Of a stretch of 64,000 nt of DNA, positions 32,022 to 64,000 are shown one piece after another. Within the stretch, counting starts at the first letter, position 1; every line of letters begins with the position of its first letter. The position numbers and the translations under genes are program-made. The notes under the pieces were generated by a model. It was not told the DNA's origin. It saw nothing but the letters and a program-made list of their open reading frames with translations, and made no database searches. The stretch is from a virus (taxonomy: Duplodnaviria; Caudoviricetes): the IMG/VR virus record IMGVR_UViG_3300031851_000001; one strand, 5' to 3'.

Positions 32022-32029
32022 TATAAATA
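32022..32029 (+). promoter_or_regulatory. T4-type late promoter
   Basis: TATAAATA upstream of heme oxygenase. Confidence 0.6.
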
Positions 32030-32062: not shown

Positions 32063-32605
32063 ATGACTAATAAATTGAAGCAACTCACATGGGCACATCA
32101 CCAAGCAGCTGAACGTAGAAAATTTGCTAAGCAACTAATTAGTGGTGGCATAGACCCATTCGTATATTATAAGTTTTTAAATTGTCAGTACTTAGTATAC
32201 AGACTATTAGAAGACATTGTAATTATTCCACCAAACCTTACTGCAATTTATAGAGCTCCGCGTATTCTTCAGGATATGGATGAGTTATCAGAAATTTATG
32301 GATTTGACGATATTGATAGTTATCCAGAATCAGTTGGCAGATGTATGACACACATGCAAGGATTGGCTGATGCAGACGATAACGATAGTCTATTAGCACA
32401 TATGTATGTAAGGCATTTTGGTGAACTTCATGGTGGACAAATCATTAAAGCTAAGACACCCGGAAAAGGGATTATGTATGAATTTGAAGGTGACACAAAA
32501 GTACTTATCGAAGAATTTAGAAAACTATTGCACGATGGTATGGAAGTAGAAGCTAAGAAATGCTTTGATTTCGCATCAGAATTATTTGACGAATTATCCA
32601 AATAA
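32063..32605 (+). CDS. hemO: Heme oxygenase
   Basis: LKQLTWAHHQAAE proximal His helix; AHMYVRHFGELHGGQII distal helix. Confidence 0.9.
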   Translation: MTNKLKQLTWAHHQAAERRKFAKQLISGGIDPFVYYKFLNCQYLVYRLLEDIVIIPPNLTAIYRAPRILQDMDELSEIYGFDDIDSYPESVGRCMTHMQGLADADDNDSLLAHMYVRHFGELHGGQIIKAKTPGKGIMYEFEGDTKVLIEEFRKLLHDGMEVEAKKCFDFASELFDELSK

Positions 32606-32608
32606 CTA

Positions 32609-32637
32609 TTGACATTCTTAGCTATTTGTTATAAAAT
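32609..32637 (+). promoter_or_regulatory. Sigma70-type promoter related to the repeated cassette
   Basis: AACTATTGACA-17-TAAAAT. Confidence 0.7.
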
Positions 32638-32671
32638 ACTAATATAAATCAAAACATATAAGGAGAGTAAA

Positions 32672-32839
32672 ATGCAAGATGACGCATTAGATACAGTTAA
32701 CCTTAAACCAAAACCGCGCGCTGAACGAATGCTTAAAAGTAACAGCGCACGTCGGCGGCGAAGTGTACTCAAATCAATTAGAGAAACACGTTTGTTAAAT
32801 GAATTCGCAAAACTCCGAAGATTAAGAAAAAGCAAATGA
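32672..32839 (+). CDS. Small Arg/Lys-rich protein (55 aa)
   Basis: Manual translation MQDDALDTVNLKPKPRAERMLKSNSARRRRSVLKSIRETRLLNEFAKLRRLRKSK; SD AAGGAG; ATGA overlap with pcyX. Confidence 0.65.
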   Translation: MQDDALDTVNLKPKPRAERMLKSNSARRRRSVLKSIRETRLLNEFAKLRRLRKSK

Positions 32840-33522
32840 CTCCATTATGGGATAAATTGAATGATTACGCTGCGCATATTCGTGGCAAGTTTCAAGACAA
32901 CTTTACTGAATATGAAGAGCCTGCTATGAACGATCTTTATTTTAAAGATTGGGATGATAGGTTTTGGCATTCACCCATTGTTAATAAAGCACATTTAAAG
33001 ACTATCGTACCAGCAGATGGTAAAGGTCTTTGGTTGATGCACGTTAATGTTTTCCCTAAGGCTGGTTTAGAATTGCCAATCTTAGGGTTTGACATCGTTG
33101 CTGGACCAAAGAAAATTACTGGTTCGTTTATGGATTTCTCTCCGCTGCATGGCTTTGAGCATCCATATAGTGATTACATGGCTAATAAGGTTAAAGACTT
33201 AGAATGGAATAAACCAAGAGAACTACCAGATTGGGCAAAAGAAATATTTTCAAAATCAATGATTGCAGTTGGAAATATTAATACTGATAAAGAATTAGAC
33301 CAATTCATTGCTGTAACATCAGATCTAGTTAATTATTATTTAGATAATTTAAAAGATATGACTTATGTATCAAATCGCGATACATCACCTTTATTAAACA
33401 AATATTGTGTTAACCAAAAGAAAAATCCGCACCTTCATCGGTCAATACTTGCTATGGGTATTACTGAAGAAGACAAAGACGATTATGTAAATAATGTTCT
33501 TTTTGCGGAGATTAACGGTTGA
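32836..33522 (+). CDS. pcyX: Ferredoxin-dependent bilin reductase, PcyX/PcyA-like
   Basis: LMHVNVFP (His69), LGFDIVAG (Asp86), DFSP, YCxNQKKNPH. Confidence 0.85.
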   Translation: MTPLWDKLNDYAAHIRGKFQDNFTEYEEPAMNDLYFKDWDDRFWHSPIVNKAHLKTIVPADGKGLWLMHVNVFPKAGLELPILGFDIVAGPKKITGSFMDFSPLHGFEHPYSDYMANKVKDLEWNKPRELPDWAKEIFSKSMIAVGNINTDKELDQFIAVTSDLVNYYLDNLKDMTYVSNRDTSPLLNKYCVNQKKNPHLHRSILAMGITEEDKDDYVNNVLFAEING

Positions 33523-43492: not shown

Positions 43493-43915
43493 ATGAAAAC
43501 ACTTTATTTTTATTTGGCACTATTCGCTGCAATTTTTACAGTGTCAGCAGCATCAGCAGACGTAACAATCGAAATGTTAAATAAGCGCGACGATGGCGCT
43601 AAGATGGTCTACTCACAAGATATTACACGTATCGAAGTAGGTGAGATTATCACATGGGTACCAACATCAAAAGGTCATAACGTAGAATTTATTGCAGGGC
43701 CAGACGGTTGGAAGAAACCAAAGAAATCAAAATTAAATAAAGTAGTTGAAATCCAGTTTAACACACCGGGTGTATATCTATATCAATGTTCACCACATAA
43801 GAGCATGGGTATGATTGCTATTGTAGTTGTAGGTGATGGAGATAATGATATTTCAAAAGCCAAAGTAAAGGGCAAATCAAAGAAAAAGCTTAAGGCTTTG
43901 TTAGGAGAACTATGA
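43493..43915 (+). CDS. paz: Pseudoazurin (type-1 blue copper protein)
   Basis: Signal peptide; KGHNV and YQCSPHKSMGM give His/Cys/His/Met ligands. Confidence 0.9.
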   Translation: MKTLYFYLALFAAIFTVSAASADVTIEMLNKRDDGAKMVYSQDITRIEVGEIITWVPTSKGHNVEFIAGPDGWKKPKKSKLNKVVEIQFNTPGVYLYQCSPHKSMGMIAIVVVGDGDNDISKAKVKGKSKKKLKALLGEL

Positions 43916-58428: not shown

Positions 58429-59093
58429 AAGCTAGACTAATTGCATACTCACAACCAGTTAAAGATGAAATCATTGGCTTAGATGATGTACAAGATTTGA
58501 TTGCATATTGTGCTAGAGTATCAAATCCATCCAATCAGTTAAACCAAGAGACTGCGCCTAAACTGCTCAACTATCTATCAAAACATTCTCATTGGTCTCC
58601 ATTTGAAATGGCTAATGCAACATTGGAAATTGAAACAACTCGTGATATCGCTCGCCAAATGTTACGCCACCGTTCATTTGCATTCCAAGAGTTTAGTCAA
58701 CGCTATGCCGATATTCGTGACTTAGATAGTAAAATGGTTGTTCGTAAGGCTCGATTGCAAGATCCAAAGAACCGTCAAAATAGTGTTATGACTGATGATG
58801 TTTCTCTGCATATGGCTTGGGAAGTTCATCAACGAAAGGTTTGGAACGAAGCTATGAAATCATATGCTTGGGCTATTGAAAACGGTATCGCAAAAGAACA
58901 AGCTCGTGCCCTTTTACCTGAAGGTAATACACCAAGCCGTTTATATATGCAAGGTTCTATTCGTTCATGGATCCATTATGTTGAACTGCGTTCGTCTAAT
59001 GGAACACAACAAGAACATATGGAAATTGCTATAGCTTGTGCCGAAGCGATTACAAAAATCTTCCCGTCAATGGATAAGTTTATTGAAAAATAA
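58425..59093 (+). CDS. thyX: Flavin-dependent thymidylate synthase
   Basis: RHRSFAFQEFSQRY signature; start moved to MKARLI at 58425. Confidence 0.95.
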   Translation: MKARLIAYSQPVKDEIIGLDDVQDLIAYCARVSNPSNQLNQETAPKLLNYLSKHSHWSPFEMANATLEIETTRDIARQMLRHRSFAFQEFSQRYADIRDLDSKMVVRKARLQDPKNRQNSVMTDDVSLHMAWEVHQRKVWNEAMKSYAWAIENGIAKEQARALLPEGNTPSRLYMQGSIRSWIHYVELRSSNGTQQEHMEIAIACAEAITKIFPSMDKFIEK

Positions 59094-59269
59094 TGTTTCC
59101 AAAATAAATTTATTTTTATTGACATTTAGGGATATATGTAGTATAGTAACTTATAAATATAGCTACCAGTTGACTGTAGAAGTCAATGAATATCCAATTA
59201 GAATAAACAATATAGTGCCTTATGGGTGCCGTGTTGTTTATACACATTAACATATAAGAGGCGCCAAGG

Positions 59270-60562
59270 ATGTTAGAAAACACTCAATCAATTTCAAATG
59301 TAATAGAATTACCTAGACTAGTTAATTATGTAACTAAACGTGACGGGACCACTAAGGACTTCGATAAAAATAAGATTACATATGCAGTAGAAAAGGCAAT
59401 GAAAGGAATTGGTATTCGAAGTAAAAACTTATCAAGTGAAATTACTTCAGAGGTGGTTGAAACCATCAACAACGAATCAACTGACGTTATTGTGAGTGTT
59501 GATACTATTCACAAAACAGTTGAAAACGTTATTATGGATATGGGATTACACGACTTGGCGAGAGAGTATATCCTATTCCGTTTTAACAATAAGCCTGACA
59601 TCTTTCGTAAACGTACGAGTCTTAAACCATACGAATATCCTCAGCTGGTAGAATTTACTGATGCTATTCGCCATTCATATTGGGTACATACAGAGTTTAA
59701 TTACTCGTCAGATATCCAAGATATGAAAGTTAAAATGACAGAGCCAGAAGTTGAAATCGTAAAGAAAGCTATGTTGGCTATCTCTCAGATTGAAGTTGCG
59801 GTTAAAACATTTTGGGCTAAGATTGGCGACCGTTTCCCTAAACCAGAAGTAGCAGCGGTAGGCATTACGTTTGGCGAATCAGAAGTACGTCATGCTGATG
59901 CGTATTCAAATCTAATTGAAATCATGGGTCTTAACGAAGAGTTTGAAAAGGTAGTCGAAGTACCGGCTATGAAAAAGCGTATCGCTTACCTTGAGCAATC
60001 AATCGGTGCCCCCGCAGATGATAAAGACTATTTCCACAAAATTATTCTATTCTCTATGTTTGTGGAAAACGTTTCATTGTTTAGTCAATTCCTTATTATG
60101 ATGGCTTTCAATAAACATAAGAATGTTCTCAAAGGTATTTCAAATGCTGTTGAAGCAACATCAAAAGAAGAAGATATTCACGCTCGTTTTGGTTTTGAAC
60201 TAGTGAATATTATTAGAGAAGAAAACCCAGATTGGTTCGACAAAGATAGTAACAATGAAGTTAATCGTCTTTGCCGTGACGCATTCAAAGCAGAGTCTGC
60301 TATCGTTGATTGGATTTATGCCGACCACGATTTAGACTTTTTACCTAAAGCAACAGTGAAAGAATTCTTAAAGCATCGTTTCAATCAATCATTGAAAGCA
60401 ATTGATATGAAGCCTTTATATGAGGTAGACGAAGAGGCAGTCGCAAGTACTGACTGGTTTGTAGAAGAAATCCTAAGTACTAAAAATGTTGACTTTTTCG
60501 TCAAGCGTTCAACCGCTTATTCAAAGAAAACAAAAGCCTTCACCGAAGACGACCTCTTTTAG
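59270..60562 (+). CDS. nrdB: Ribonucleotide reductase class I beta subunit with N-terminal ATP-cone
   Basis: VTKRDG...FDKNKI ATP-cone; EVRHADAY and EDIHARFG di-metal motifs. Confidence 0.92.
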   Translation: MLENTQSISNVIELPRLVNYVTKRDGTTKDFDKNKITYAVEKAMKGIGIRSKNLSSEITSEVVETINNESTDVIVSVDTIHKTVENVIMDMGLHDLAREYILFRFNNKPDIFRKRTSLKPYEYPQLVEFTDAIRHSYWVHTEFNYSSDIQDMKVKMTEPEVEIVKKAMLAISQIEVAVKTFWAKIGDRFPKPEVAAVGITFGESEVRHADAYSNLIEIMGLNEEFEKVVEVPAMKKRIAYLEQSIGAPADDKDYFHKIILFSMFVENVSLFSQFLIMMAFNKHKNVLKGISNAVEATSKEEDIHARFGFELVNIIREENPDWFDKDSNNEVNRLCRDAFKAESAIVDWIYADHDLDFLPKATVKEFLKHRFNQSLKAIDMKPLYEVDEEAVASTDWFVEEILSTKNVDFFVKRSTAYSKKTKAFTEDDLF

Positions 60563-60573
60563 AAAGATATATT

Positions 60574-62271
60574 ATGAGAAAATACAAGAAATTTTATTGG
60601 CTAAACGATGATGCGCGTACATTTTTGTCGCGCGGTTATCTAGAAGAAAAAGAAAAGCCACAAGACCGCATCCGTGTCATTGCTGATAAAGCTGAATGGT
60701 ACCTAAAGGATATGGCAAAAACAAAAGCAAGTAAAGCCAAATACGATGGCTTTGCTGATAAATTTTATGACTATATGAGTCGTGGATTTTATTCATTAGC
60801 ATCACCTATATGGGCTAACTATGGTAAAGAACGAGGTTTACCAGTATCATGTTTTGGCTCATTCATTGATGATAGTATGCAAGCTATTTTATTTGGTCAT
60901 GCCGAGAATGGTATGTTAATGAAAAACGGTGGTGGTACATCGGGTTACTTTGGTGCAATTCGTCATCGTGGTGCTCCTATTAGAGACTCAGGTGAATCTT
61001 CAGGTTCAGTACACTTTATGCAAATGTATGATACGTTGGCGTCAGTTGTATCGCAGGGTTCAGTACGTCGAGGCTTCTTCGCTGCCTACCAAGATATTGA
61101 ACACCCAGATGCTGATGAGTTTTTAGATATTGGTACAGAAGGTAATCCTATCCAAGGCTTAACGACTGGTATTAATGTTAGTAACAAATTCATTGACGAA
61201 ATGAAAGCTGGCGATCCAGAAAAACGTCGTCTATGGGCAAAGGTATTACAACGTCGTTCTGAAATTGGTTTCCCTTATATTCTATTCTCAGATAACGTAA
61301 ACGATGGTAGACCACAAGTATATAAAGATAAAGATATGCGAGTACATGCTTCAAATATGTGTGCTGAAATCGCATTGCCATCTTCGCACGAAGAAACGTT
61401 TACATGCGTATTATCATCTCTTAATGTTTTACATTGGGATGAAATTAAAGAAACAGACGCGATTGAAACATTGACTATGTTCCTTGATACAGTATGCGAA
61501 GAGTTTGTTCGTAAGACTGCTGGTCAAATATATATGAAACGTGCTCGTGATTTTGCTATGAAACACCGTGCCCTTGGTGCTGGTATTTTAGGTTGGCATT
61601 CGCATTTACAATCTAAAATGATTTCTTTTGAGTCAAAAGAAGCAGCTCAGTTAAACCTCGAGATTGCCAAAACGATGCAGGAAAAATCATATGAAGCTTC
61701 TCGTCAAATGGCAAAAACATTAGGTGAACCAGAGTTGCTTGAAGGTTATGGAATGCGTAATACCACAACAATGGCTATTGCTCCAACAAAATCATCAAGC
61801 TTTATTCTTGGTCAAGTATCACAGTCTATTGAGCCAGAATTCTCTAACGCGTATGTTAAAGATTTGGCGAAAATGAAAGTTACTATTCGTAATCCATACC
61901 TAAAAGAATTATTAATTGAAAAAGAACAAGATACACCAGATGTATGGGAATCAATTAAAAATCGCGACGGTTCAGTTCAGCACCTTGAGTTTTTAACTGA
62001 AGACGAACGCGCAGTATTTAAAACATTCTCAGAAATTAGTCCAAATACTATTATTGACCAAGCTGCTATTCGTCAAGAATACATTGACCAATCTCAAAGT
62101 TTAAATCTTATGCTTGATCCAGATATGACAGTTAAAGATATTAACGCGTTATATCTATATGCAAATGAAATGGGTGTGAAAAGTTTATATTACGCTTACT
62201 CAATGTCAGCGGCTCAATCATTAACAAGAAAACGCGTTATGAGCGCAGATTGTGCGGCATGTGAAGCATAG
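60574..62271 (+). CDS. nrdA: Ribonucleotide reductase class I alpha subunit, no ATP-cone
   Basis: PVSCF, SNMCAEI, IAPTKSSS, KSLYY, C-terminal CAAC. Confidence 0.95.
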   Translation: MRKYKKFYWLNDDARTFLSRGYLEEKEKPQDRIRVIADKAEWYLKDMAKTKASKAKYDGFADKFYDYMSRGFYSLASPIWANYGKERGLPVSCFGSFIDDSMQAILFGHAENGMLMKNGGGTSGYFGAIRHRGAPIRDSGESSGSVHFMQMYDTLASVVSQGSVRRGFFAAYQDIEHPDADEFLDIGTEGNPIQGLTTGINVSNKFIDEMKAGDPEKRRLWAKVLQRRSEIGFPYILFSDNVNDGRPQVYKDKDMRVHASNMCAEIALPSSHEETFTCVLSSLNVLHWDEIKETDAIETLTMFLDTVCEEFVRKTAGQIYMKRARDFAMKHRALGAGILGWHSHLQSKMISFESKEAAQLNLEIAKTMQEKSYEASRQMAKTLGEPELLEGYGMRNTTTMAIAPTKSSSFILGQVSQSIEPEFSNAYVKDLAKMKVTIRNPYLKELLIEKEQDTPDVWESIKNRDGSVQHLEFLTEDERAVFKTFSEISPNTIIDQAAIRQEYIDQSQSLNLMLDPDMTVKDINALYLYANEMGVKSLYYAYSMSAAQSLTRKRVMSADCAACEA

Positions 62272-62274
62272 ATT

Positions 62275-63471
62275 ATGAACTATCTGAAATACTTTGAAAA
62301 AACAGTTAAAGAATTTAAAGCCGATGGCAGATATAGAGTCTTTAACGATATACTTAGAGAGCGAGGGTCTTTCCCTCGTTCAATATGGTATGGTAAGTAT
62401 GCTCCAAAAAATATAGTGAACTGGTGTTCTAATGATTATTTAGGTATGGGTCAAAATCCATATGTTATTGATTCAATGCATACAGCTTTGGATCAGACAG
62501 GTGCTGGATCAGGCGGTACTCGTAATATAGGTGGAACATCACATTACCATGTTACATTAGAGCGAGAGATAGCATCTTTACATAAAACTCAATCGGCATT
62601 AATATTTACAAGCGCATATGTTGCTAATGAATGGTCACTTATAGCCTTATCTAAAATTATACCAAATATATGTTTTGTTTCTGATAGCAAAAACCATGCT
62701 TCAATTATTATGGGTATGGTAAATAGTAGAGCAGAAAAACTAATATTTGAACATAACGATATGTCTGATTTGGAAACAAAACTCAAACTGGCGCTTAAAC
62801 GTAAACTAAACCCCGTAATTGTATTTGAGTCAATATACTCGATGGACGGAGATGTATCACCTATAAAATCAATAGTTGATCTGGCATATAAATATAAGGC
62901 AATGACTTATATAGACGAGGTCCATGCAGTAGGTCTTTATGGTAAAACAGGCGCTGGGTATTGTGAAGAGCTAAACTTATATTCTGATAGTATCGACATT
63001 GTGAACGGTACATTGGGAAAAGCTTACGGCGTCCAAGGAGGTTACATTGCAGGTAATCAAACTATTATTGACGCTATTAGGTCGACGGCAAGTGGTTTCA
63101 TATTCACTACCAGTATGTCACCAGTTATATGCGCTGGGGCACTCGCCAGTATAAATTATCTAAAGGATCACAACTCCCTTAGAGAAAAACATCAAGAACG
63201 TGTTGCCAAACTCAAAGGCATGCTTATTGATGCAGGAATAAATATCCATCCAAACGCTTGTACTCACATTATACCAGTGATGGTCAATGATGCGTTTAAA
63301 TGTAAAGAAGCTTCGGATAGATTAATAAACGAATTCGGTATATACATACAACCAATTAATTCTCCAACAGTGGAACAAGGGACCGAGCGATTACGTATCG
63401 CACCTACTCCATACCATACCGATATAATGATGGTAGAATTAGTTGAAGCGCTGAAAGAAGTATTGAAATGA
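62275..63471 (+). CDS. hemA: 5-aminolevulinate synthase
   Basis: [33 protein letters not shown] (PLP Lys), FIFTTS. Confidence 0.93.
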
Positions 63472-63932
63472 ATCAATTAGAAAATGCATTCTTCAGTAAA
63501 AAGGAAAATAACATGACTAGAATTAAAAAAGCTTTTTGGTTTACACTTGGAATTCTATTAGTCGGCGTAGCTTACCTCGGTGTAATACTACCCGGACTAC
63601 CTTGGAGTACACCAATCTTAGGCGCAACATTTTGTTTTGCAAAGTCAAGTGATAGGCTACACGGTTGGATTATGAATCATCCAAAGTTTGGTCCGTTTGT
63701 TAAAAACTGGTCAACATACAGAGTTTATCCAACCTTAGCAAAATGGGCAATGGTTGGCGTTATGTCAACATCATTAGCATTTATGTACTTTGGTACAGGT
63801 AATGAAAAAGCAACATTATATATGTTTATTACTTTTGCACTTATAGTTTTTTGGGCATGGCGTTACCCAGGATCGCAAGCTGAAGCTGAACGTCGTATTG
63901 AAGCCGGTGAAAAAATCGGTTGGTTGAAATAA
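63468..63932 (+). CDS. YbaN/DUF454 family inner-membrane protein
   Basis: [12 protein letters not shown]...[20 protein letters not shown]. Confidence 0.85.
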
Positions 63933-63943
63933 AGGATTAAGAT

Positions 63944-64000
63944 ATGAAAACACTTACAAGTACTATTATTGCATCACTTATGGCATCAGGTGCCATAGCT
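63944..64000 (+). CDS. Exported protein, N-terminus only (truncated by window)
   Basis: MKTLTSTIIASLMASGAIA signal-peptide-like; SD AAAGGA. Confidence 0.55.
   Translation, partial: MKTLTSTIIASLMASGAIA

Follow-up and report, generated by a model that had tools for sequence, protein, structure and literature searches.

The stretch of DNA analysed here (the window) is the IMG/VR record IMGVR_UViG_3300031851_000001, 64,000 nt long with a GC content of 36%, and it comes from an uncultured, marine T4-like phage. The phage origin is evident from the genes encoding a T4-type topoisomerase II (large and medium subunits), a gp41-like helicase, gp59, gp32 and UvsX. The nearest cultured phages share at most 56% identity with the helicase of this phage, and a megablast search with positions 59000-64000 against INPHARED (50,697 GenBank phage records) returned no match. 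In the same region as the replication genes, at 43493-43915, a gene encoding a plastocyanin/azurin-family copper protein was also found (PF00127, 53.7 bits).

At the right end of the window four tightly packed ORFs are placed on the plus strand in the order nrdB-nrdA-alaS-DUF454 (Table 1). The stop codon of nrdA (TAG, 62269-62271) is followed by a spacer of three nucleotides (ATT) and by the ATG of alaS at 62275, while the TGA of alaS (63469-63471) and the ATG of the DUF454 gene (63468-63470) share the sequence ATGA and thus overlap by 4 nt. Two candidate starts were identified for this last gene. The ATG at 63468 gives a protein of 154 aa carrying a conserved MNQLE extension; the ATG at 63513 gives 139 aa, has the better Shine-Dalgarno sequence (AAGGA, 63501-63505) and corresponds to the start position of distant homologs. 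An earlier note on this DNA had described an intact 5-aminolevulinate synthase (ALAS) gene 3 nt past nrdA that overlaps a YbaN-family gene, and the coordinates proved to be exact, the literal 4-nt overlap hinging on which of the two starts is used. It had also placed hemO, pcyX and iscA in the same phage, and matches to PF01126, PF05996 and PF01521 are indeed present within the window. Thirteen nucleotides past the DUF454 gene another ORF begins (63945-64000), which has a signal-peptide-like N-terminus (MKTLTSTIIASLMASGAIA...) and is cut by the end of the window; the counterpart on a related contig (L001:9646-10614), 322 aa long, gave no Pfam match.

Table 1. Position of the genes and motifs of the window that are discussed in the text
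Feature	Coordinates	Strand	Basis
nrdB, RNR small subunit with N-terminal ATP-cone	59270..60562	+	PF00268 191 bits, PF03477 64 bits
nrdA, RNR large subunit without ATP-cone (NrdE-prime type)	60574..62271	+	TIGR02510 761 bits, cut-off 602
viral 5-aminolevulinate synthase (valaS/hemA), 398 aa	62275..63471	+	TIGR01821 544.4 bits, cut-off 338.55
DUF454/YbaN-family putative inner-membrane protein, 154 aa	63468..63932	+	PF04304 89.1 bits, cut-off 35.1
heme oxygenase hemO	32063..32605	+	PF01126 66 bits
ferredoxin-dependent bilin reductase (PcyX/PcyA-like)	32836..33522	+	PF05996 61 bits
A-type Fe-S carrier iscA (IscA/ErpA-like), 94 aa	7986..8270	-	PF01521 40.9 bits, CGCGESF motif
promoter-like motifs 5' of nrdB	59119..59159	+	consensus scans only

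ALAS is a PLP-dependent enzyme which converts glycine and succinyl-CoA to 5-aminolevulinate (ALA), the first building block of heme. On the 398-aa ORF the ALAS model TIGR01821 (EC 2.3.1.37) scored 206 bits above its cut-off, and the models of the sister enzymes stayed below theirs (BioF 309 vs 426 bits, Kbl 306 vs 460 bits, SPT at most 228 vs at least 500 bits). The closest structures in the PDB are also ALAS enzymes, namely 7x98 (1.7e-132) and 2bwn of Rhodobacter capsulatus (3.3e-114). Residues R21, N53, T82, N84, S136, H141, K155, D214, H217, T246 and R374 of the phage protein align to their counterparts in 2bwn, which we take to be PLP and substrate contacts and active-site residues, and together with K249 they are invariant across 13 diverse viral homologs. 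K249 is the PLP Schiff-base lysine and aligns to K248 of R. capsulatus, which is named as the PLP lysine of that AlaS in PMC11480375. A quick maximum-likelihood tree with SH-aLRT support placed the window protein inside the AlaS clade, and a branch longer than 4 substitutions per site sets Kbl and BioF apart as the outgroup. The viral clade to which it belongs is sister to Pelagibacteraceae AlaS (98% SH-aLRT), and three Neisseriaceae/Francisella sequences also fall inside the viral-side clade. The ORF is a real and intact ALAS and not a BioF or Kbl, in agreement with the earlier identification: TIGR01821 alone is above its cut-off, and the phylogeny against BioF and Kbl gave no clustering with either.

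Viral alaS genes (valaS) have been described by Wegner et al. 2024 (Nat Commun 15:8783, PMC11480375) on marine and freshwater phage contigs, as single genes, within hemO-pcyA/X-alaS cassettes or within 'broken' ones. The vAlaS proteins were reported to be about 55% identical to Pelagibacteraceae AlaS, many of them have lost the heme-feedback residues H342 and C400 (R. capsulatus numbering), and the freshwater vAlaS CB_2 was able to complement ALA auxotrophy in E. coli (PMC11480375). In the ALAS of the window H342 is replaced by K342, and the protein ends at position 398, before C400, with no C-terminal Cys. Its sequence has no exact match in the supplements of PMC11480375, which do hold related sequences. 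Nor are the three genes contiguous in this phage, since hemO and the bilin reductase (FDBR) at 32063-33522 lie 29.7 kb upstream of alaS at 62275. Relatives of the window ALAS (69-99% identity) were found on 283 IMG/VR contigs. When the ALAS and DUF454 proteins were used as tblastn queries against the 50,697 GenBank phage records of INPHARED, all the matches had at most 37% identity; where annotated these are BioF, Kbl or YbaN, and several are bacterial genome or MAG-type records among the phages. None of the INPHARED phages has an ALAS of the window kind or a DUF454 of the viral type.

As ALAS, hemO and a PcyX-like reductase are encoded in one phage, both the entry to heme synthesis and the breakdown of heme are covered, as had been noted earlier for this DNA. 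However, phage ALAS and the make-and-break picture of ALAS with hemO/pcyX are already published, and viral ALA synthase counts among the established auxiliary metabolic genes; the window copy thus adds only a new member to the family.

What is new with respect to the searchable literature is that DUF454 is a near-constant companion of viral alaS. The text and tables of PMC11480375 mention neither DUF454 or YbaN nor an nrd or RNR context of valaS, and a search of the literature found no report linking DUF454/YbaN to phage heme genes. We scanned 80 viral loci seeded with alaS, five of which end too early to be judged. DUF454 adjoins alaS in 72 of the 75 informative loci, loci without an nrd context included, and is absent beside alaS in the other three (L012, L014 and L018). 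The two genes mostly overlap by 4-14 nt, although an insert of 130-600 bp separates them in nine loci and their order is reversed in L079. In L055 they form a two-gene island on the plus strand with minus-strand genes on both sides, one of them encoding an HNH endonuclease. The reciprocal scan covered 80 viral loci seeded with DUF454, and alaS adjoins DUF454 in 54 of the 78 that were informative. In the remaining 24 the nearest 6 kb are free of alaS, and unrelated genes (gp5, NADAR) surround DUF454 in some of them, so DUF454 is not strictly dependent on AlaS.

The association extends to other heme genes. In three loci (L229, L230 and L258) DUF454, alaS and a bilin reductase gene overlap in this order as a cassette, with 4-nt overlaps in L229, and in L241 a divergent hemO-pcyX operon is found 1.2 kb from DUF454. 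In the complete 201-kb genome (L226) to which the locus L012 belongs, DUF454 is placed behind nrdB-nrdA and alaS lies 35 kb off, both genes being kept. Among ten large contigs bearing DUF454, hemO is present in nine, that is in all five with alaS and DUF454 together and in four of the five without an adjacent alaS. Moreover, the pairwise identities of AlaS and of DUF454 are correlated (r = 0.78, 54 distinct pairs), which fits co-inheritance of the two proteins and is no proof of interaction.

The synteny statistics also tell that the pairing is restricted to viral contigs. We examined the 80 loci of the genome collection most similar to vAlaS, 9 of which turned out to be of phage type and 71 genuinely bacterial. 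None of the 71 bacterial loci, Pelagibacteraceae, SAR116, Hyphomicrobiales and Bacteroidota among them, has DUF454 within 10 kb of alaS. The nine others (L081-L089) carry a phage-type alaS (68-80% identity) with DUF454 adjacent in eight, the ninth (L086, 1263 bases) being too short to judge. The MAGs into which they were sorted are assigned to Rhodobacteraceae, Saprospiraceae, Vibrio, Crocinitomicaceae, Neomarinimicrobiota, Polynucleobacter and Flavobacteriales, and the nine are most likely phage contigs that were mis-binned. The AlaS of L087 is identical to that of the IMG/VR locus L080.

No PF04304 protein was found in 151 Pelagibacterales genomes, and 68 of 301 alphaproteobacterial genomes have one. 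In about 55 alphaproteobacterial genomes with both coordinates listed, the distance between DUF454 and alaS is never below 8 kb. The closest bacterial spacing seen belongs to an alphaproteobacterium with four alaS copies (L193, G312:C11:4000-22000), in which DUF454 lies 8 kb from one of them. The AlaS of a Neisseriaceae bacterium PsAf, a Francisella MAG and a Neisseriaceae MAG (L090, L095 and L096, 56-63% identity) stands on the viral side of the tree, apart from Pelagibacteraceae, a placement which hints at a transfer of alaS from phage to bacterium. DUF454 is not found near alaS in any of the three, nor anywhere in the genomes of L090 and L095.

The neighbourhoods of bacterial DUF454 genes were sampled at 30 alphaproteobacterial loci (±1.5 kb) and 20 gammaproteobacterial loci (±4 kb). 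The neighbours are heterogeneous, and no heme or iron family is among the 25 commonest neighbour families of either sample. In the literature, a subset of DUF454 genes co-occurs with hemO near type 11 secretion system (T11SS)/hemophore genes, and DUF454 is induced by iron starvation in Avibacterium. The statement of the earlier note that YbaN genes often sit in iron/heme loci is therefore borne out for the T11SS/hemophore subset of the literature only and does not hold for the 50 bacterial loci sampled here.

The match of the phage DUF454 protein to PF04304 spans positions 1-114 of the 115 of the profile. Since the protein reaches 62.1 bits with the YbaN equivalog model PRK10527, far from its cut-off of 163, it is a member of the family and not the equivalog of E. 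coli YbaN; it is 25-36% identical to representatives of the non-viral type. A DUF454 profile search of 1.8 billion representatives distinguished two groups. One is a clade of about 25 clusters, of the type present on the viral contigs, with more than 115 bits and a match that extends to the very end of the profile; the other consists of ordinary DUF454 proteins, which score at most 100 bits and match only to about profile position 120-128. A conserved C-terminal tail, WRYPGS-x2-E-x3-R-x8-W, is found only in the viral-contig clade. Throughout the family P42, P45 and G75 are invariant, and W67, H71, W81 and K92 are kept in at least 90% of the sequences.

The AF2 model of the protein (pLDDT 92) has a long helix at 18-40, a shorter one at 47-60, short helices at 62-69 and 74-84, a helical hairpin at 89-110/113-131 and a tail helix at 137-145. 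According to the positive-inside rule, the region 62-84 (W67-x3-H71-x2-FG-x5-W81) and the tail should lie on the cytoplasmic side of the membrane, the side of AlaS and HemO. A sequence search of the PDB with the DUF454 profile gave no match. With the model, Foldseek against the PDB gave E values of at least 0.7 throughout, a wide VIA-align search gave Z scores of at most 6.6 to generic helical hairpins, and the ESM Atlas gave low-score PGPGW membrane clusters only. Longer fused forms of DUF454 and an AlaS-DUF454 fusion were searched for and none was found, which counts as weak evidence. In bacteria, DUF454 occurs in fusion proteins with an ABC exporter (ABC_membrane + ABC_tran + DUF454), with a TonB C-terminal domain or with a molybdopterin oxidoreductase carrying pentapeptide repeats (examples P0167, P0191, P0220, P0238, L177 and L186). 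These fusions are compatible with a role of DUF454 as a membrane anchor or adaptor and do not define its substrate.

Upstream of nrdB we identified a sigma-70-like promoter motif, TTGACA-17-TATAGT (59119-59147), with 11 of 12 matches to the consensus, and a T4-late-like motif TATAAATA at 59152-59159. A consensus scan of the plus strand from the end of nrdA to the end of DUF454 found neither a promoter with at least 10 of 12 matches nor a terminator-like site. With promoter-like motifs 5' of nrdB and no terminator-like site between nrdA, alaS and DUF454 a single transcription unit is plausible, and nrdB-nrdA-alaS-DUF454, with spacers of 3 nt (nrdA-alaS) and -4 nt (alaS-DUF454), probably form one unit in which alaS is the third gene. 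The octamer TATAAATA occurs 18 times in the window, 10.5 being expected, and none of 100 shuffles reached 18. One copy lies at 32022-32029, 34 nt upstream of hemO, and for this reason hemO may be under late control; the nrd-alaS unit carries early-like as well as late-like motifs.

We are inclined to suggest that the phage has a functional vAlaS together with a co-inherited DUF454 protein in the tetrapyrrole pathway, and that the placement next to nrd is non-functional; taken as a whole we regard this reading as probable. The vAlaS, in which both heme-feedback residues are missing, would condense glycine and succinyl-CoA to ALA, and with hemO, the bilin reductase and IscA it would maintain or raise the flux of tetrapyrroles in infected cells, as proposed for the published vAlaS. 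DUF454 would be a small inner-membrane protein, inherited along with AlaS and acting at the membrane in the same pathway; from its association with alaS it may dock or handle AlaS, ALA, porphyrin or heme. A more specific version can be put forward only tentatively. In it DUF454 is a membrane partner dedicated to the tetrapyrrole module of the phage, and with its His/Trp region and tail facing the cytoplasm it might tether AlaS, or pass ALA, porphyrin or heme between HemO and the late enzymes of heme synthesis, which are membrane-bound.

Other explanations were considered. As the alpha-oxoamine synthases have one fold across the family, and the BioF and Kbl models also match the ORF with E values near 1e-90, it could be argued that the enzyme is a BioF, a Kbl or a cyclising or secondary-metabolite ALAS-like protein, providing no ALA for tetrapyrroles. 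The bit scores and the length of the branch to Kbl and BioF, both given above, speak against it, and the viral homolog CB_2 does make ALA (PMC11480375), so we consider this extremely improbable. A functionally unrelated DUF454, with a role of its own such as membrane remodelling or superinfection exclusion and placed beside alaS by descent, deserves more attention. It would account for the DUF454-seeded viral loci without a nearby alaS, some of them among structural or unrelated genes, for the heterogeneous bacterial neighbourhoods and for the fusion of the DUF454 hairpin to unrelated domains in bacteria. On the other hand, the adjacency outlasts changes of the flanking genes, of gene order (L079, L229) and of strand context, DUF454 turns up again near hemO-pcyX in L241, the L012 genome keeps both genes though they are separated, and the INPHARED phages have neither this type of DUF454 nor an ALAS. 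On balance such a passenger seems to us rather unlikely.

The earlier note had seen in the locus an ALAS coupled to the nrd operon. An iron economy tied to the RNR genes would mean that ALAS, YbaN, hemO, pcyX and iscA make and break heme in order to deliver iron or bilin to the RNR and the other Fe enzymes of the phage, co-transcription with nrdAB being functional. In accordance with this, alaS follows nrdA after only 3 nt and no terminator-like site intervenes, the phage has both iscA and hemO, and a role of hemO in iron supply is discussed in PMC11480375. The slot behind thyX-RNR is also kept for alaS/DUF454 in many relatives, even those with a different RNR type: nrdB(ATP-cone)-nrdA at 59270-62271 of the window has its place taken, in the close relative L024 (4510-7998), by a canonical nrdA(ATP-cone) followed by nrdB. 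Nevertheless the nrd linkage is missing in about a third of the alaS loci (L054-L080, L012, L229), where the linkage to DUF454 persists. Moreover, heme synthesis takes up one iron per heme, which is returned on breakdown, so that a make-and-break cycle would give zero net iron. The NrdB of the window with its ATP-cone also resembles what we take to be the Mn-dependent class Id enzymes. These points make an iron economy quite improbable. With another RNR type in relatives and no linkage in other lineages, a functional coupling to the nrd operon is not supported, and we read the nrd linkage as gene order inherited within one lineage, with no functional tie.

The conserved DUF454 partner is of more use than the ALAS copy itself. 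It offers a simple, testable handle on a protein family that has no assigned function, E. coli included, as well as on the phages of marine bacteria that do not photosynthesise, whose heme and bilin genes serve a still unexplained purpose. Should DUF454 really be a partner of the phage module, this would be the first functional assignment for the widespread DUF454/YbaN family, E. coli YbaN among its members. Furthermore, if the host is SAR11, the phage imports a membrane protein family that is missing from the 151 genomes searched of that order.

The combination of ALAS, heme oxygenase and bilin reductase is shared with the hemO-pcyA-alaS island of Bradyrhizobium sp. ORS278 (PMC11480375), which the same source describes as a contiguous bacterial locus with a linked phytochrome, DUF454 not being reported there. 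With the published vAlaS, the ALAS of the window has in common the marine T4-like (pelagimyophage-like) contig, the sister position to Pelagibacteraceae and the absence of H342 and C400. Like them it is paired with hemO and a PcyX/PcyA reductase in the same phage, and the distance between these genes assigns it to the 'broken cassette' or individual valaS class; activity was shown for the freshwater homolog CB_2 only. Compared with the bacterial AlaS/HemA (R. capsulatus 2bwn), the fold, the length, the PLP lysine and the substrate-binding residues are the same, but the copy described here is encoded by a phage, has K in place of H342, lacks the C-terminal Cys and, unlike bacterial alaS loci, has DUF454 as its neighbour. 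This neighbour shares P42, P45, W67, H71, G75 and W81 with E. coli YbaN and PF04304, an uncharacterised inner-membrane family, from which the phage protein differs by its extra conserved C-terminal tail.
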